From: Balanoglossus misakiensis
Lineage: Eukaryota; Animalia; Hemichordata
Reading direction: 5' to 3'
Length of the DNA stretch: 64,000 nucleotides
Assembly: GCA_040954595.2 (NCBI GenBank)
Contig: CM082579.2
Location: 14,261,834-14,325,833 of the forward strand
Shown in pieces: positions 3,058 to 18,255 of the stretch (positions are counted from its first letter, which is position 1; every line of letters starts with the position of its first letter). The notes beneath the pieces are model-generated. The model saw only the letters and a program-made list of their open reading frames with translations. It was not told the origin of the DNA and searched no databases. A program made the translations under genes and the position numbers.

Positions 3058-3276
3058 GGAAAATTAAAGTTGGGTAATTTGGATGTATTCATACGAGTGT
3101 TGGTCAATGATAGGAAAGTCCTTTGTGCATTTTCAAAATGAAAACCAAAAATGCGAACAAAACACACTGAATTACGTATGGGATATTGATGTTGCCTAAT
3201 TTGTGTGACTCTACATTTACTTAAACTCTCACAGGGAGACAAATGTCACAGCAAACGGAAAAATGATTATGCTAAG

Positions 3277-7076: not shown

Positions 7077-8848
7077 TTGGAAGGGACTGCTTTAAAAGAT
7101 TATGTTAGAGAGGAACAAATTAGACAGAGGGATCTTAGGGCTACTGAGAGAGAGGAGCAGAGAGAAGATAATAGGCGGCGCGAGGAACATGAGAGAGAGA
7201 TACTGAAAATGCAAATTCACTTACAAGAATTAAAATTGAAAGGGGAAAATACAGAACAGCAGGTTACTGAAAATAATTTGGCCAAAGCGCGGCTCCGAGA
7301 CTACAGGGTTTACGTGAGGATGTTGATGATATGGATGCGTACCTTCAACGTTTTCAGCGCTACGCCACTGCTCAGAAGTGGGAAAAAGATGACTGGGGGT
7401 GAATCTCAGTGCATATTGTTACAAGGTAAGGATGTATCCACATACAACCAAATGCCTGCAGCGTCTGCAAATAATTATGATGAATTGAAACCAGAGTTAT
7501 TGAGGGCTTACCAGTTAAGTGAGGAGAGTTTTCATGACAAGTTCCGTTCGTGTATGCCACATTATGATGAAAGTGCTCAAAAGTTTATGGACCGTATTGG
7601 TGACTATTTGGGCAGATGGGTAGAACTGGCTGGTACTCCAAAGACGTACAATGGGCTTACAGATCTGTTACTTCGAGAGCAGTTTATTGGAGTATGTTCC
7701 AGAGACATGGCAATGTTCATTAGAGAGCGACGGCCAGAGAATGTCCAAGAGATGGTATCTACTGCCTCAAAATACTTAGATGCCCGAGGGTGGTGGAAAC
7801 TGCCAAGTAATGCCAAGAATAATCCAAGGAGCCAGCCGACAGCAAATACCAAGCCTGCTGTATATCCAAATCAAGTAAATAAGTTTAATAACAAAACCGA
7901 TGGTTCCCATGTTTTTAAAGGTACGTGCTTCGTATGTGGTAAAGGTGGTCATATGGCCAAAGATTGTAGAAGTAAGCCAAAGATGCATAAGACGGCGGTA
8001 TTGTTAACTGAAGAAGATAGAAACTATCCACCTAAACAAGAATGTACACATTGGGGCAACCGTCAACAGCCCAGGGGACTAGACACTGGTTATGCATGTA
8101 TGGTGGTAGCAATGGAAATAGATAAAACAGATGCAACACTGAATAAGGAGTTCGTGTTACCATGTGGTCATAAGCTCCCAGTGATGAGTGCTGCTTGTAG
8201 TGCCCATGGAGTGAAGAAGATGCCGGTAATGAAGGGATTGGTCGATGGTAAGCTGGTTAGCGTTTTGCGTGATAGTGGGTGTAGTAGCGTGGTAGTTCGA
8301 AGAAGTCTGGTGTCAAGTAATCAGCTGACTGGTGAGTACAGGACGTGTGTTCTGATAGATGGGACTATTAGAAGAGTACCTGTAGCCTCTATAAAAGTTG
8401 ATACCCCTTACTTTGTTGGTGATGTTACTGCACTGTGCATGATGAACCCTGTGTATGATTTAATACTGGGCAACATTGATGGTGTATCTGACCCTTCGAA
8501 TCCTGATACTACATGGCAGGAACCATTGCCGACATGTAGACTGTGTACAACTGTTGGACAGGTACCAGGTTTAGCAAATGCTGTGGAGACCAGAGCCCAG
8601 AAGATAGCCAACCAAAAACCAATCAGAGAGCTTAAAGTACCTAAAGCTGTTGGTGAAGTGGTGATGCCAGGGAAGCTTCAACAAGCTCAAGAAGAAGACT
8701 CCACTCTTGACAAACTACGTGAGAAGGCAATTTTGGGTGACGAGAAAGTGACTAGGAATGGAGGTAGGTTGAAGTTCATCATGAAAGATGGGATCCTGTA
8801 CAGAGAGTTCAATTCGCCAATGGTCCAATTTGGTGAAAAGCTGTTACA
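7077..8848 (+). pseudogene. gag: Gag-protease (5' part of the gag-pol polyprotein)
   Basis: Coiled-coil N-terminus, SCAN-like LLLREQF...FIRERRPENVQEM, zinc knuckle CFVCGKGGHMAKDC and protease LRDSGCS. The typical gag motif DDMDAYLQRFQRYATAQKW lies in another frame (~7310-7400), implying compensating frameshifts. ORF sequence after 8848 is read-through into the inserted transposon. Confidence 0.88.
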
Positions 8849-8888
8849 CACTGCGGGAAATACTAGAGCTATGTTGGGCAGTATTCCG
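8849..8888 (+). repeat. Left bipartite terminal inverted repeat
   Basis: CACTGC, a 20-nt spacer, then TGGGCAGTATT (8875-8885) followed by CCG. Confidence 0.8.
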
Positions 8889-8932
8889 CGAAGCGCGAGC
8901 TCCCATGTTCACCATAGCAACGCATTGCCAAG

Positions 8933-9583
8933 ATGGCGGCGCCCGTGTTGATCGATGCCGAGAAAGTTATAAAACGCAAATTGCGAGAGGCAAAATCTGT
9001 GCTTAAACGTAAAAAATGCGTGTCGGACAATCTGTATATACACCCACTCTTTGATGAACTTGAGGATGTGACAACAAGGGCCATATTTCGAAACGACAAG
9101 CTGTCAAAGGACAAGATTCGTTGGCGTGACGTCGCCGTATTTCCCATGTTTCAGCGTGATATGACCTACTGGCAGAAGACCTTCTACGCTCGGCTGTCAA
9201 CATCCCCGTCGTTAAGGTCACCATGGCAAAGCAGCTTTACACAACAAATGCCGAGGGAAGTATTTGATGTTTTTCATCAGTTTGCTACTCGGACCGGTTT
9301 TGGTATCGACGAGAAGACCTCCAGGGCTATCATAACCTTGACCTTCACAAGTTCCTCGAAGCTATTGTATGTGATACGGAAAGGTTATTGCTACGAGGGC
9401 GCTATCGGTCAGCATACAGAGAATATCCTAGAGAAGAAAGTCCGTGGAAAGAGGGTAGCTGTTATATGCACACCTGAGAAGCCCTGTGTTGTGAAATATT
9501 TTATCAACAGGGAGACTGTTGCTGTTAGATTCAGCTTTGGTGCCTGGAACAAACATGGAATTCCATTACATCCAGAGAACTGA
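8933..9583 (+). CDS. 216-aa orphan protein carried by the DNA transposon (ORF2), basic N-terminus
   Basis: Uninterrupted ORF with a strong Kozak context (AAGATGG), starting 84 nt inside the left end. NLS-like KRKLREAKSVLKRKK. AATAAA at 9712-9717. No domain recognised. Confidence 0.75.
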   Translation: MAAPVLIDAEKVIKRKLREAKSVLKRKKCVSDNLYIHPLFDELEDVTTRAIFRNDKLSKDKIRWRDVAVFPMFQRDMTYWQKTFYARLSTSPSLRSPWQSSFTQQMPREVFDVFHQFATRTGFGIDEKTSRAIITLTFTSSSKLLYVIRKGYCYEGAIGQHTENILEKKVRGKRVAVICTPEKPCVVKYFINRETVAVRFSFGAWNKHGIPLHPEN

Positions 9584-9711
9584 ACCCTATTGATTTTTCA
9601 CACTGATTCAACCCATCTGACGAACATTTTTTTCCTGATCTGTGGCACATGTTGTTCAGTGTAGATGTATCAGTCTGTCAAGACAGTCCTCTCACAATTG
9701 ACATATATTCA

Positions 9712-9762
9712 AATAAAAAAAGGAAAATTAGAAGACTCAAAAATTCATCACTTGTCTTTATT
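9712..9762. terminator. Convergent polyadenylation signals
   Basis: AATAAA on + at 9712-9717 and AATAAA on - (TTTATT) at 9757-9762, between the two convergent genes. Confidence 0.45.
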
Positions 9763-10435
9763 TATATACATTCAATACAAATGAACAGATAACGTTTACA
9801 AAATTTCCTAAACTGTAAAATTCTTTTTTTCCATCATTATTGTAACATAGATTTTTCATTAGTTTCAGAAAAAAATGTATGTTACCTACAATCAACATTG
9901 ATAAGTCAATCAAAACTGCTCATCTAACAGTTAACCAGGATTTCTGGTCTAAATTTAATTAATATTTACAATTAATTCCATGACAAAATTTATAAATATC
10001 AAGAATTTGATGAGACTTAATTCTTTATTTTTTCACAAATTCATTAAAATTTCGTGCAGGTGCAGAATAAACAACTCCTCAAGAAAAATGTAAAACTTTT
10101 CTATCAAGCTTATGTATGTCATACATTTTAATTTTGCAAAGCACTGCAATCACTATACGATTAAGGGTTTATTCACAATACTTAATAGTGGTAAGATAAG
10201 TTTCAATTTCCCTGTCCCCATACATGCACACATATACAAAATCCCATAAGAAACATATCATCTCCAGTTCAAAAAGTGTGAATTCATGTGATTTGTGATC
10301 TCCATTTTTATTAAATGCAGCTCTCAACTACAGATGAGTCTTTATAATTCTGTAATGTAATTAATACCATAGTTATCCTTTAATTCTAAAGTAGCACACA
10401 GTGACACAATCCACTGTTTCAAATTCAATCATTGT

Positions 10436-12676
10436 TCACAGCATAAGTTTCTTGAGTTTATTTGATATTTTACCAGTGACAGCTGCTTTTTTTATGTCAT
10501 CCATAATTGGGTCAACACATATTTCACAGGCAGTCATTGTTTCATTTTTCAAATTGCCACACATACAGTAGCCTGCATTCTCATAATATCGACTGGGAAT
10601 GTATTTTTCTTTTTCTTTAAGCTCAAATTGACCTACATTTGCCCTTCTATAGTTGTCAGCTTTTGGACTTTTGTTCCTCAGCCAAAAAAGCATCACATAT
10701 TCGTGTCGAAATATGAGGGCCCACCTATTTTGAGGTGTAGAATTTTCACTGAATTCTAGCAGGCGTAGATGCTTTGCCTCTCTGCCTTCCATTGTGTTTA
10801 GGCCTAATCCCAGACTGAATTGCTTATAGATACTAGTGGTGTGTTTTGGGACTACATAACCAATGTGCCACACAGTATTATTGACATTCAGAAACAGGGA
10901 ATGTAGATTAAAGTACCACCGACACTTATGCCTAAGTACAAGCAAATCTCCCTCATTTATGTTGAATCGTGAGAATAACAAAGTGATATCTCTAAGCAAG
11001 ATACTAGTATATGTGTAGAGAGCTAATTGAGCCCGACGCTTTGGACTGTCTGTATCGCTTCTCAATGCTAATACCAATCCCATGAAATGCCAAGCAAGTT
11101 TGCGAGACTCCTCACCAGTGAAGCGATAAACCACATTAATGTTGGCATTTGACTTGACACTATTTTCATTGAAGTATTTTACAATCTTATTATACAACTT
11201 TCCAGCTTTTACTTGATATTTTAGGGCAGACAGGAATTTGTACAGATATGACTCGTTAGGTAGATTCTCAATTTTAACTCCATTTTCACGACCCTTTTCC
11301 GAAGTGTGGGCAACTGCGTCAATCAGTAATCGTTGGAAGTAGTATTGCCATGCATTGTTCTTTAAATGCAATGGCTCAGCCTTGGCACAATCAATAAATC
11401 TACCCAACGGTGGTACAAATTCCTGTCTTGACCTCAGACTGGCTATAAATTGTGTGATTTTGGGTCGCACTGTTTTGGGCTTTCCAGTTTTAATTTTCTT
11501 AGTTGACTTCAACTTTTCAACAGCTTCTGCATCTTTTATTCTTTTCTGATATTTCCATTCATCCCACTTCTGACCTGGGCCAATTTCTGCTCCAATACAA
11601 TCAATATCATTTTTGGAAACGTTAGCAAATGAGCTGAAATACTTTGCTGCATTGCTTAGTTCTCCAGACACACTGGCCAATCCCTTCTGATCAAAGGGTA
11701 AAAGTGACACCTGAAAAGTTACATCAAGACTGCCAACTTTATATTTACGTTTCTCAATACACTCAAGGTCTTTTGACAATGCAATTGCAAATTCAATCAT
11801 TATGGGGTCATCCTCTTTTATGTTTGCCCCTAATAGGAGAAAATTGTGGTCTGGGCTAGCAACACGGTGGGTCACATTCAAGAAACTAACTAGCCATGCA
11901 GTGGCCTGTCCATGTTTGCCAAACGGAGCCCCGTCAGCACCTATACTGATTTGAAATGAGCCCTCCTGTTTACCGAACCAGTTAAGAATATCAGGCTGTG
12001 TTTCCCCCATATTTAAATATAAACTGGCAATCTTAATAAGCAACTCCTCAGGGTTTCTTTTTAAGCCGACTTGTTTGCCTTCAGATGATATAATTGGCTC
12101 AAGATTTCCAATGTCAAGGTTACTTACATACTGTACAACTTTTGTGTATGGGAGCAGTCTTGGTATTCTACAGCCAGAATGAATTTCTAATGCTTTCCTA
12201 GGATGTTTCAAGTTGGAGAACATCTGAAGTTCACTCTGCCTCAGACAGTTATATTTTCGTTTGGATAGTACTCCGCCCTCATACATAGTTCTGACACTCC
12301 TCACCAAATTGTTCTCACTTTTCTCAAATTTACTGATGTATTTATCAAATACTGATGGCATTACTTTTTTACTGATTTGGGGAGAGGTTCTGAAGTATGT
12401 TTTCATTTGGTCAGGAGTGGCAGAATTAACAAGAGTATACCACAAACCATCAAGTGCTGCTTTTGGTGGATGTAGTACATTCGGTTTATTTATACCTTTG
12501 GCTGGGCTTACATCTGTAGTTGCTACATGAATATTTATGGCTGCTGATAAGGTTTCACACCTACGTTCATACTGTTGACGTCGCGACAGCTTCAAAGATT
12601 CACTATTATCTGCACATACTTCAGTGTTCTTGTGGACCCATTTAGAGCGTTTCACATTAACATCATCAACAGGAAT
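10436..12676 (-). CDS. DDE transposase, main exon (746 aa), RAG1-core/Transib/Chapaev-like
   Basis: Motifs in order: LSRRQQYERR, LSKRKYNCLR, SIGADGAPFGK (D codon 11935-11933), LPFDQKGL (D 11692-11690), EPLHLKNN, RFTGEESRKL, WHIGYVVPKH, MEGREAKH (E 10780-10778) and C-terminal CMC-x10-CEIC. A phase-0 acceptor (TTTCAG) precedes 12676. No internal stops. Confidence 0.85.
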   Translation of the reverse strand: MPVDDVNVKRSKWVHKNTEVCADNSESLKLSRRQQYERRCETLSAAINIHVATTDVSPAKGINKPNVLHPPKAALDGLWYTLVNSATPDQMKTYFRTSPQISKKVMPSVFDKYISKFEKSENNLVRSVRTMYEGGVLSKRKYNCLRQSELQMFSNLKHPRKALEIHSGCRIPRLLPYTKVVQYVSNLDIGNLEPIISSEGKQVGLKRNPEELLIKIASLYLNMGETQPDILNWFGKQEGSFQISIGADGAPFGKHGQATAWLVSFLNVTHRVASPDHNFLLLGANIKEDDPIMIEFAIALSKDLECIEKRKYKVGSLDVTFQVSLLPFDQKGLASVSGELSNAAKYFSSFANVSKNDIDCIGAEIGPGQKWDEWKYQKRIKDAEAVEKLKSTKKIKTGKPKTVRPKITQFIASLRSRQEFVPPLGRFIDCAKAEPLHLKNNAWQYYFQRLLIDAVAHTSEKGRENGVKIENLPNESYLYKFLSALKYQVKAGKLYNKIVKYFNENSVKSNANINVVYRFTGEESRKLAWHFMGLVLALRSDTDSPKRRAQLALYTYTSILLRDITLLFSRFNINEGDLLVLRHKCRWYFNLHSLFLNVNNTVWHIGYVVPKHTTSIYKQFSLGLGLNTMEGREAKHLRLLEFSENSTPQNRWALIFRHEYVMLFWLRNKSPKADNYRRANVGQFELKEKEKYIPSRYYENAGYCMCGNLKNETMTACEICVDPIMDDIKKAAVTGKISNKLKKLML

Positions 12677-13054
12677 CTGAAAGATTAAGTGTGTGATAAA
12701 TATATACTAATTAGAATATAATCATTATATATAAAATAAAATCTTCTTACAAGTTAATCATTAATTTAAATGTCCTTGATAAGAAATACACACGTGTAGC
12801 CTGATAAGAAATACACACGTGTAGCCTGTATTTTTCTGACAACTTCTGCAATAAAAATCCTAAAAAATATATATAGTTTGTTGGAAAACCTAGATGTTTT
12901 GCATCAAAGCTGAACCCATTTTGTTATCATTGTTTACACAGGATCATGTGACATGAAGTTCAAAAAGCGAATTTGGGCTAAAATTTGAAGAGGATTTATA
13001 CAAATCTGAGATTTTTAAAATTATGACTAAGTCTATTTATCTGATCTAGCTTAC
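12677..13054 (-). other. Predicted 378-bp phase-0 GT-AG intron of the transposase gene
   Basis: Donor AAG|GTAAGC and acceptor CTTAATCTTTCAG|ATT; the phases match and join ...NNKRK to IPVDDVNVKRSKW... The intron is AT-rich and contains a 25-bp tandem duplication at 12777-12826. Confidence 0.8.
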
Positions 13055-13498
13055 CTTTCTCTTATTATTCTTTGTAGCTAAGATCTCACAAATCTTACTG
13101 TTCTTCTTCTCTAGTCTAGCTAGCTGGGTTGAGGATCTTTTTACTAGTCTCCTAGCTGCACTCAACTTATTCAACTTATCCTGAATTATGCTTTCTTCCT
13201 CATCTCTCTTTCTCTTTCTCTGTCTACACCACTCTCCTAAGTTAAACCTGTGTTTAGTCTGTCCTCTCTTTGTTCTAACTACCAATAGGTTGTTGGCCAC
13301 GCTCCCAGACAAAGATCTAGTCTTCAATTTCTCCTGATATAGTTGTTGCAAACACTTCTCTTCAGCTACCTGTCTCGCTATCTTTTGGTCCTTTGCCCAC
13401 TGGCCTATGTTGAAGTAACTTTTCCCTTTTCTATTCGGCATAACAATAGACAAACTTTTAAGAAGTGCGCTACTCCTGTTGAATAGTTTGCCCCACAT
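13055..13498 (-). CDS. Transposase first coding exon (148 aa, basic, helical)
   Basis: GCCATG start at 13498, just downstream of an acceptor (CCCTTTTCAG, exon from 13514), and ends at a GTAAG donor. The spliced product is 894 aa. Candidate upstream donors at ~13650 and ~14218 suggest non-coding leader exons. Confidence 0.72.
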
Positions 13499-14306
13499 GG
13501 CTCTAAATCTATACCTGAAAAGGGTGAACAAGAGAAATATCTTTACAATAATTATCTATCCGAGGGAAGCAAAAACAAAACACCTGCTCATTATACTTCC
13601 TCCAGAAATTGAGGTCAAAGGTGACATAGAAAGAATGTGGGTAACCTTACCATAACAATCTCGCCCGTTCATTTTTTTCTTATTTCGTTTTCACCCTCGA
13701 ATTTCCAGCGAATTATATCAAGAATATATTTTAGCACAAACTATTGGTTTCTGATTTTTCAGTTACGGTCTTATTTTCTGTCAATTCTATGAACAATATC
13801 ACCATGTCGCTGAAAATTCGAAGCGCCGCCATTACAATCAATGTAACCCGTGCTGCTGCCAAGGAACACACAGGGTCGTATATTTTCGCTTGGTATGATT
13901 TCGTCATATTGCTTGTAGCAGCATTTTAAACATGGAATCCTATGTTTACGTATAAAAGACTAAATTCGTATGGTTTTCAATTTGAAAAAAACAATTCTGT
14001 GAAGCTGAATCGTTGTAATTTTTAGTGTTTGTTTATGGTTGCTTAGGACGGCTTCTGCTATAGCAACGGCCAGGGACTGTCAGCGGGTGATCAAAATGTT
14101 CAAGTTATTTGGCTGATACACATAAATAACACAGCAGAATCGCAACTTTATTTCATATTGTCTCTGACATCTTGCTAATTTTACTAAACAAAACTTGGAA
14201 TAAAGCAATATTACTCACCGAATTATGCTGTGCATCGACAGCTGTGTTCGATCGCGAACGCCATTACTGTGTCTAATTAAATATTCATGAGCTTCATAGG
14301 CTGCCA

Positions 14307-14347
14307 CGGAAATACTGCCCATAGGTGGCGTCGTTCAAGCTGTAGTG
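14307..14347 (-). repeat. Right bipartite terminal inverted repeat
   Basis: Reverse complement reads CACTAC, a 20-nt spacer, then TGGGCAGTATT (AATACTGCCCA at 14311-14321) followed by TCCG. Confidence 0.8.
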
Positions 14348-14351
14348 ACAG

Positions 14352-16714: not shown

Positions 16715-18255
16715 GTGAAATGTCCCATGTGCTTCCTGGCTAGCGTTGTGGTAACATATTATTCGGGGTGTACGCAGATCGTTCATTGATTTTCTGAGAA
16801 ATAGCCTAACTGATACTATCTCCAACATAAACCGCACCCTGGAAAGATTAAATGATCTTTTAGGTGGACTTTGAAAATCTGATTAACTCATCTAAGCATT
16901 TTAGCTAAGTTGTATATTTTTTAATTATAATCATACAAAATACTTAAAAAATAAAAACAATGTTCAGTTTTAATACCCACTGATGAGGGGAAACATCAGT
17001 TTCAAATTCTTTTCATGGGAGCGCTTGAGCAGAGTTATGAGTTTTGCTCTGTGAAAGAAAATGGGGGGATTTCAAAATTTTGGCAGTTCGGAAGGGGGAT
17101 TTCAAAATATTTCGGGTTGTGAAAGGGGGGGGGGGCATGTGAAAATTAGCGGTAAAAGATGAATCCCCCCCCCCCCCTCCAGAGGTGTTTGTGAATGCAG
17201 CCTAAGAAAGAAAAAATGTGAAATGGGTCAAATATGGGCCGGACGTGCCCATTCAACTCAATTTACTTTTGTTTGCTTTAAGTAGGAATTGATCACAGCT
17301 ATATTTATTTTGGACACCTGAGCGACAAGAAAACAATCTGATTCTACATTTTAAAAAGCGTCATTGGAAAAGCACTGCAATTTTGTTTCTTGCTTTAAAA
17401 AAGTTTGGGGTGGCATGTAATAATTAAGGTGTGTCTAAATTACTAATTTGGTGCACCTCAAAGCCCTTAGCCAATGTAAATTATATCCTGCATTGTATTC
17501 ATGAAGGATATCCTCCCGCGAGGTCAATGCCATTCAATGTCAAACAGTCTCAACAAAGACCATTGGACACTCATAGCCGTTTTGTATGAAAGTGACTGGA
17601 GTACGAGATGAGTTTCATGACAACAACAAATCATGCTCAGTCTCGCTGCAGGGTCTATAATTTCAATAACGGCTAGACGCTGGACACTATCTTAGGTAAC
17701 ACTTTAGGGTCATAGTGCTGGAACGACATGTTTAAACAGGTCGTTCCGGCACTCTGACCCTTTCGGCCCCAGTCGTTTCAGCCCCCATTTTCCACGACCC
17801 AAGTCGTTACAGCCCGGACAGTAACACCCCAAACATTTCAACACTTATCAGGGAAGACCTTAGCCCAACTATTAAAACTTGGCTTGAACCTACTTAAGTT
17901 CTCCGCATGAAATATGAGCGAGCGTTGTCAGAGGACGACAGCTACGCACACTTTGGGCGTGACCGAATCAAACAGAATTGAATATTCTATATTCGGAAAA
18001 AACACCTTATCTCCGTTTTGCCGTTGACAAACCGATTTCTGTCATGACAGTTACTCCCGGGGACTGTGACAGACCATATACAGACAGTAGAGGCCGCGCG
18101 CTGGGGGTCTACACAAGTCACTACAGCTGATGTAAGCAAGTACAACATGCTTTGCTTGCAGGAATGTTCCATTTTCAATAGAGGGGTGTGTATATTCAGA
18201 GGGAATGTCAGTCGGGGCCCTGGCTGGCAACATGCGGCGTATATATTGACAATCT

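Follow-up and report, generated by a model that had tools for sequence, protein, structure and literature searches.

A two-gene CAC..GTG element of Balanoglossus misakiensis pairs a transposase of predicted RAG1/Transib-type fold with a conserved convergent partner gene

To what element does a transposase laid out like the RAG1 core belong, and is RAG1 its closest kin? The question is raised by 64,000 nt of Balanoglossus misakiensis DNA (contig CM082579.2, 14,261,834-14,325,833 of the forward strand, assembly GCA_040954595.2), hereafter the window, whose positions are used as coordinates throughout, with 1 being its first letter. Here, we report that the gene is part of a 5,499-bp (5.5 kb) element (8849-14347) that starts with CACTG and finishes with TAGTG, i.e., has CAC..GTG ends, that is flanked by a 3-bp target-site duplication, and that holds a second, convergent gene, termed ORF2 (open reading frame 2). 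An initial annotation had reported the transposase gene only, without the ends, the duplication and the conserved partner, from which more can be learned. We hold with good confidence that this is a two-gene element with a transposase of predicted RAG1/Transib fold, likely moving by cut-and-paste and likely helped by ORF2. The best reading is that of a two-gene lineage of its own within the Transib/Chapaev/RAG1 (CMCT) clade, outside the named families of that clade, with cnidarians, hemichordates and probably lancelets as hosts.

The transposase is read from the minus strand, where a frame of 756 aa free of stops (10436-12706) and another of 169 aa upstream of it (13046-13555) are joined by a GT..AG intron into one 894-aa frame of two exons (Table 1). 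All motifs named in the initial annotation were found in this spliced frame at the place given there, i.e., SLKLSRRQQYERR at residue 175, GADG at 394, PFDQKGL at 475, YFSSFA at 494, EPLH at 582, FTGEESRKL at 667 and MEGREAKH at 777; the spacing between D477 and E781 is 304. The intron is predicted, based on GT-AG, on the reading frame and on a conserved exon-1 motif, F-x-[ILV]-G-x-[WYF], which backs exon 1 and also opens the homologues of Nematostella, Exaiptasia and several loci; the checked homologues carry it once and the window protein twice. Please note that a second methionine, M20 (13441), fits the homologue starts better, and the protein may then be 875 aa long. Neither a Chapa nor a RING domain was found in exon 1, which has three scattered cysteines and one histidine without Cys-pair motifs.

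A structural model covering exon 2 (pLDDT 90.3, pTM 0.87) places D396 in the first core strand, D477 just past a strand and E781 in a helix; we take these three to be the residue-by-residue equivalents of RAG1 D600, D708 and E962. Foldseek returned 49 matches at E ≤ 0.001 which, as listed, are RAG1, BbRAG1L and HzTransib, with E values of 7e-13 for RAG1 and 2e-7 for HzTransib versus 9e-3 for the P element. The same order was seen with VIA-align: RAG1 (Z 22.9, root-mean-square deviation (rmsd) 4.0, 468 residues aligned), HzTransib (Z 20.3, 4.3, 428) and BbRAG1L (Z 20.2, 4.1, 462) lead, and P (Z 11.3), ISCth4 (MULE-like, 7.7) and Hermes (hAT, 5.8) score lower. A wide structure search of 48,161 chains again put RAG1 on top and left the leaders unchanged. 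The RAG1/Transib-type fold with a DDE triad, which had been proposed from motifs matched by eye, is thus borne out by the predicted model, and none of P, hAT or MULE gives the better match (Z 11.3, 5.8 and 7.7 versus 20-23). Identity in the structural alignments is 8-13%. The RAG1 alignments stop at model residue 680 or earlier, so the Cys tail (model residues 704-720) is without a structural match.

Whether RAG1 itself is the closest kin is a separate matter. The language-model feature neighbours (Atlas), which we used for cluster likeness scores, are headed by two unnamed cnidarian clusters (0.98) and a DUF1280-bearing cluster (0.96; the family on 16% of its members), followed by an arthropod RAG1_RNase_H (Transib-like) cluster and RAG1, both at 0.95. 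DUF1280, the transposase of Chapaev, groups with RAG1 (PMC3985635). A special kinship to RAG1 is not supported, as the Chapaev-type and Transib-like clusters stand level with it. From the fold and the Atlas scores together, the transposase sits on the Transib/Chapaev/RAG1 branch. As CACTA, Chapaev, Mirage and Plavaka transposases are all missing from the structure listings, the top rank of RAG1 within the clade may be one by default. Exon 2 and 33 homologues gave no match to Transposase_21, DUF1280, DUF1258 or Plavaka, though a distant Transposase_21 member could escape the profile. If the protein were a divergent RAG1L/Transib member, nearer to RAG1 than to Chapaev or EnSpm, one would point to RAG1 ranking above HzTransib in both structure searches, to a single RAG1 entry whose alignment reaches into the NBD region (517-526 residues, only at rmsd 7.0-7.3), and to the convergent two-gene layout as in RAGL (PMC7204232). 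We consider this quite unlikely in view of the 3-bp duplication, the missing C2H2 site and CX2CX3GHX4C tail, a partner that is not kelch-PHD, the spacing of 304 versus 206-214 in Transib and 253 in RAG1 (PMC1131882), the low structural identity, and the DUF1280 (Chapaev) cluster that scores as high as RAG1.

The family behind the window transposase is large. Scoring 7,995 candidates at an E cut-off of 0.001, we found 247 homologous proteins, with named matches from anemones and corals; the closest is a Ptychodera flava protein with 74% identity and the remaining homologues have 34-45%. In a profile search of 1.84 billion representatives, 722 matches reached 1e-30 or below. Four full-length 797-aa Nematostella loci fall within one 90% cluster, which suggests recent spread. 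Conservation was read from 109 aligned transposases (drawn from 120 listed matches, with 12 near-duplicates left out) and from independent representatives at 50% identity, whose counts vary by the site covered. D396, D477, H585 and E781 are invariant in the former and kept in 94/95, 109/111, 102/102 and 67/69 of the latter, respectively, and the tail cysteines C852, C854, C865 and C868 are kept in 105/105, 104/105, 106/106 and 103/104 of the aligned set; i.e., of the residues that had been singled out beforehand, the three acidic ones are invariant and the four cysteines near-invariant.

The zinc motif behaves differently from the triad. C(2)C, i.e., CxxC after D477, occurs in 0/109 aligned sequences and in 0/105 representative segments, and cysteine is found at its two former positions in 8/118 and 2/117 representatives. 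A few relatives have single-Cys remnants at the motif (YPCSFA, YPSSFC), so YFSSFA can be taken as a decayed C(2)C. The loss of the ZnC2 cysteines, noted earlier from YFSSFA standing in place of YICTLC, is hence a property of the whole family, and the different Cys tail holds as well, i.e., CxC-x(n)-CxxC versus CX2CX3GHX4C of RAG1L; the form CxC-x(5-20)-CxxC is present in 34/52 tails, with a spacing of 10 in 16. The first ZnH2-like position is histidine in 52/109 and 17/75 only and tyrosine (Y755) in the window, and the second histidine, H760, is kept in 106/109 and 65/75. Among the distant members are SAP-tailed proteins of Branchiostoma. In the distant P0219, P0225 and P0236, two of which bear Branchiostoma names, the catalytic motifs are retained, the PLH motif is followed by a long insertion, and C2H2 and/or SAP domains stand beyond the Cys tail. 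Viral contigs gave no relative in a scan for which the ORF2 profile is too divergent.

The two ends of the window element carry imperfect bipartite terminal repeats that share the 11-mer TGGGCAGTATT, which, allowing for one mismatch at most, is found at these two ends only in the window (chance expectation 0.24); the ORF2-side repeat also holds the motif GGAAATACT, inverted relative to the distal block. A third CACTACAGCT (18119-18128), a 10-base match to the transposase-side terminus, is without the distal partner motif; we did not take it as an element end, and it is probably incidental. The metagenome loci that we used for comparison are the best 80 of 242 confirmed stretches, together with one, L081, from the genome collection. 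Among the relatives, 14 show both ends, with termini reading CACG(C/G)(C/T)(G/T)G and terminal repeats that are likewise bipartite (a terminal block of ~15 nt and a second block near 29-36). An exact 3-bp duplication flanks 7/14 of them (binomial p 2e-9), with one 2-bp match, and no 4- or 5-bp repeat was found at the true ends in the window or in these 14. The duplications across the window and relatives are ACA, TTA, TAG, ATT, AAT, AGC, GAT and ATA; a TWA target accounts for 1/8 (TTA, from the doubtful L009). L081 (1-18043) is the single prokaryote-genome match; here a complete 8.5-kb element lies within an array of 294-bp satellite units, without long flanking open reading frames, and the contig is assigned to a bacterial metagenome-assembled genome (MAG). 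We read it as most likely animal DNA in the MAG and not as a bacterial copy. The units of that satellite display the empty site 22 times, and these empty-site copies are decisive for the 3-bp duplication. Several of the relatives (L009, L010, L011, L013 and L014; L020, L021, L041 and L054; L019) have long internal inverted repeats, in which a copy of the ORF2-side region sits upstream of the transposase. In L011/L013, one left terminus is nested within another at a distance of 845 nt.

The second gene, ORF2, is a regular companion of the transposase. By tblastn, the window ORF2 matches 32/80 loci, always downstream of the transposase and on the opposite strand; this is the non-circular count, as the ORF2 profile was built partly from the same loci that it counted. 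With the profile, ORF2 was found in 32/34 informative loci, i.e., those with at least 1.5 kb beyond the intact transposase end, and the 36 loci with a convergent ORF2 fall in 18 groups at 90% transposase identity. Its ATG is 84-106 nt from the element end in 13/13 elements. Protein distances of ORF2 and transposase are correlated (Spearman 0.67, Mantel p 0.0002, 21 elements), and the two trees have 12/18 splits in common; as far as sequence comparison goes, these data show ORF2 co-descending with the transposase. The ratio of non-synonymous to synonymous substitution rates (dN/dS) is 0.25-0.36 in three unsaturated ORF2 pairs versus 0.13 for one transposase pair, and six further, saturated ORF2 pairs have pN well below pS; judged from these substitutions, ORF2 is under purifying selection. 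At the ORF2 start, we noticed an overlap with an exact reverse-complement copy of the 9-nt ProtoRAG TR5/YY1 element (8928-8936; PMC7481187); in 12/13 elements, the ORF2 start has the YY1-type AANATGGCG, which may be an A-rich start context only.

What the ORF2 protein is can be said mostly in the negative. Its model (pLDDT 84) consists of a helical hairpin and an alpha/beta domain, not a kelch propeller, and neither a kelch nor a PHD Pfam domain was found in 17 ORF2 members; ORF2 is not RAG2-like. All 17 aligned members are basic (isoelectric point (pI) 9.1-10.3), and since none of their acidic residues is conserved to 90%, ORF2 is unlikely to be an enzyme. A single-sequence search with the window ORF2 gave no relative and the ORF2 alignment search gave 76 matches, 74 of which carry the precomputed Pfam PF26709. 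The alpha/beta part alone reaches Z of 4.9 at most (RnlA N-domains, archaeal-virus ORF99/AcrID1), and a viral structural row at E 4e-4 was rejected for its TM of 0.20. Atlas gives a weak likeness to Argonaute N/L1/PAZ clusters (0.93, low recognition score, 151/256 features), which we treat as a lead only. This likeness, together with the basic charge of the whole family and the existence of such cargo genes in DNA transposons (PMC12730594), would suit a selfish regulator or anti-silencing passenger (cf. VANDAL, TET cargo) that binds DNA or small RNA and protects the expression of the element, in place of a transposition helper. We find such a role rather doubtful: no Argonaute chain is among the best 50 structural rows, the position, orientation and end distance of ORF2 are fixed and the trees largely congruent, in contrast to the TET cargo genes, which swap between lineages (same source).

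Several observations weigh against a RAG1/Transib-fold transposase with 3-bp duplications and a dedicated partner. Searches of Pfam and PDB with the protein and with two profiles gave no significant RAG1, Transib or Pfam transposase match; it is from the predicted fold and the language-model features that the RAG1 link is drawn. Because H760 is retained, the zinc site may still have some role in metal or hydrogen bonding. Half of the two-ended relatives (7/14) lack the 3-bp duplication, which probably reflects collapsed multi-copy short-read assemblies; L017 and L018, for example, have a common left flank and different right flanks. The duplication match of L009 is doubtful, its left flank being found in L011 and L013 as well. 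ORF2 is absent from 2/34 informative loci (L029 and L071), 6/18 tree splits conflict, three of them with support above 0.9 in the transposase tree, and the dN/dS values come from three related, non-independent pairs, with six others saturated. Co-descent shows linkage, not contact, and a search of PDB with the ORF2 fold gave no match at E ≤ 0.001, the wide search being dominated by the helical hairpin (best Z 8.2); the role of ORF2 is thus inferred solely from linkage, charge and selection.

Is the window copy alive, or possibly even domesticated? The window allele is open in both frames, and one sequencing sample (X1, X2) contains the element, with contigs that cross both ends into the same flanks as in the window; this is what a domesticated host gene pair would offer. 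We consider domestication highly improbable, since the ends and the duplication are intact, the insertion splits a retroelement, and the other allele has single-base indels in transposase codons 502 and 859 and 9/12 changed codons non-synonymous. These same indels and substitutions are what neutral drift would leave, and this insertion appears to be under such drift. In run X2, a loose end of 8 letters at 8847, considered as a possible second insertion site, was not counted, being from one contig; two other loose ends of that run are mutual reverse complements and linker-like.

The retroelement interrupted by the insertion is a Gypsy-like long terminal repeat (LTR) element (3273-~22380), with gag/protease domains on the left and integrase on the right of the insertion. 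Its terminal repeats of ~2 kb, near 3273 and 20079, are 95-98% alike; it encodes gag (SCAN-like, zinc knuckle), protease, integrase and reverse-transcriptase-like pieces, the integrase preceding the reverse-transcriptase-like part, and was already broken by stops and frameshifts. To the right, a very long AT-rich satellite (~23600-64000) of 78/79-nt units has higher-order repeats and inverted blocks near 23.6-33 kb. To the left, at 2465-2681, there is a short inverted-repeat element resembling a miniature inverted-repeat transposable element, with very high summed contig depth.

Table 1. Parts of the B. misakiensis element and their window positions
Feature	Position	Strand	Remarks
Target-site duplication, left copy, ACA (3 bp)	8846..8848		identical triplet at 14348-14350
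Target-site duplication, right copy, ACA (3 bp)	14348..14350		
Imperfect bipartite terminal repeat, ORF2 side	8849..8886	+	CACT terminus, TGGGCAGTATT at positions 27-37
ORF2, 216-aa basic protein (pI 9.9)	8933..9583	+	ATG 84 nt from element end; convergent with transposase
Spacer separating the two convergent stop codons	9584..10435		AATAAA signals on both strands
Transposase exon 2	10436..12676	-	NBD-like helices, RNase H-type DDE core, degenerate ZnC2 and ZnH2, Cys4 tail
Cys4 tail C852/C854/C865/C868	10517-10567	-	
E781	10778-10780	-	exon 2, DDE core
Degenerate ZnH2 (Y755, H760)		-	exon 2
Degenerate ZnC2 YFSSFA	S496 at 11633-11635, A499 at 11624-11626	-	
D477	11690-11692	-	exon 2, DDE core
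D396	11933-11935	-	exon 2, DDE core
Predicted phase-0 GT..AG intron, 378 nt	12677..13054	-	contains 25-nt tandem duplication at 12777-12826
Transposase exon 1	13055..13498	-	basic, coiled-coil-like N-terminus; F-x-[IL]-G-x-W motif twice
Imperfect bipartite terminal repeat, transposase side	14310..14347	-	CACT terminus, TGGGCAGTATT at equal spacing (14321-14311)

One may ask whether the family has been catalogued in Repbase already (e.g., from Nematostella, Acropora or Hydra, filed as EnSpm, Chapaev3 or 'DNA-3'), with only its features unremarked. CAC..GTG ends with 3-bp duplications are the filing rule for EnSpm (PMC12730594) or Chapaev (PMC4079192), several full-length Nematostella copies exist, and the ORF2 relatives already have a Pfam entry, PF26709. 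PMC12730594, however, ascribes C(2)C to all named CMCT lineages, and it is absent here; Chapaev3 targets TWA, and the duplications found here are varied; no Transposase_21, DUF1280, DUF1258 or Plavaka match was obtained, and the closest Atlas clusters are unnamed. We take prior cataloguing as possible, if somewhat on the doubtful side. We found no account of such a family in the literature within the reach of our search, which did not extend to Repbase Reports and most subscription papers. Our verdict is a real variant of a known clade, previously unremarked, notable for its lost zinc site and its stable non-RAG2 partner.

How would such an element move? A transposase dimer would bind the bipartite ends via the NBD-like helices and the zinc-binding Cys4 tail, by analogy with the tail clamp of BbeRAG1L (PMC10629977), and D396/D477/E781 would likely place a nick at the CAC end and close the flank into a hairpin, in the manner of RAG, BbeRAG and HzTransib (same source). 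Strand transfer would then use a 3-bp stagger rather than 5, the duplication itself being observed. The former C2H2 zinc site is probably held by metal-free Y-F-S-x-F / W..P.H packing. ORF2, transcribed inward from the opposite end, is likely a basic nucleic-acid-binding helper, kept for raising the transposition or the expression of the element; that it is a direct subunit of the transpososome is possible, though we put this forward tentatively. RAG2 binds a zinc-B region (PMC9435367), which makes it suggestive that this family has both lost the zinc site and gained a partner of another kind. It would go further to see the RAG1-RAG2 invention as made a second time, independently, i.e., an unrelated partner captured tail-to-tail, zinc-B remodelled, an obligate two-protein transpososome and a 3-bp stagger in a new superfamily-level branch, and we regard this as unlikely.

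As a large, apparently mobile family without C(2)C, these elements are a natural test of what the zinc site is for in CMCT transposases and RAG1. With a second RAG1-fold transposase stably paired with a convergent partner, one can test if the RAG1-RAG2 layout came from a general tendency towards two-subunit transpososomes or from a one-off capture. A comparison of the target-binding surface with those of RAG/Transib could show the cause of the 3-bp versus 5-bp stagger. Context is also gained for PF26709 and for hundreds of 'uncharacterized' gene models of corals, anemones and acorn worms.

The nearest frame for comparison is the CMCT clade as a whole, whose defining traits are CA..TG ends, duplications of 2-5 bp, and the motifs C(2)C and H(3-4)H common to all lineages and RAG1 (PMC12730594). 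The window and the 14 two-ended relatives have the CA..TG termini, the 3-bp duplication of the window and 7/14 relatives is within the range, and the predicted model is a DDE transposase with a RAG1/Transib-type insertion; C(2)C after the second D is absent throughout, and of the H(3-4)H before E the second histidine is mostly kept and the first far less so. RAGL requires 5-bp duplications, RAG2L and the CX2CX3GHX4C tail (PMC7204232). RAGL, ProtoRAG and TransibSU resemble our element in the predicted core fold, the DDE triad, CAC ends, bipartite terminal repeats, two convergent genes starting near the ends, a C-terminal Cys-rich tail and marine invertebrate hosts. They differ in the duplication (3 bp here versus 5 bp), in the ZnC2 plus ZnH2 zinc site, which is missing here, in the tail motif, and in the partner, a 200-240-aa alpha/beta protein here versus kelch-PHD RAG2L; our element also has no Chapa/RING N-terminus and equal spacing in both ends. 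Transib, which keeps SxxCxxC and a D-to-E spacing of 206-214, with 253 in RAG1 (PMC1131882), shares the predicted fold (HzTransib, Z 20.3), CAC ends and DDE, and departs from our element as a single-gene element with 5-bp duplications, whereas here there are two genes, a 3-bp duplication, no such motif and a spacing of 304. RAGL and Transib as defined are excluded because the duplication is 3 bp.

Chapaev3 has a TWA target and C(2)C (PMC4079192) and a Chapa zinc-finger N-terminus (PMC4411706). Chapaev3/Chapaev elements are alike in the CAC..GTG ends, the 3-bp duplication (Chapaev3), the LH motif and a partial H(4)H, and the DUF1280-bearing Chapaev cluster is the nearest named Atlas neighbour (0.96); our family is set apart by having no C(2)C, no Chapa domain, no DUF1280 match, a target that is not TWA-limited and a conserved second gene. 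EnSpm/CACTA, Plavaka, ESTA and Lanisha share the CA..TG ends and a duplication in the clade range, the window ends reading CACTG/CACTA; set against EnSpm/CACTA and Plavaka are the missing Transposase_21 or Plavaka match, the missing C(2)C and the ends of the relatives, which read CACGC(C/T)GGG. Plant CACTA elements, too, have a second product, TnpA, which arises on the same strand by alternative splicing, whereas ORF2 here is a separate convergent gene.

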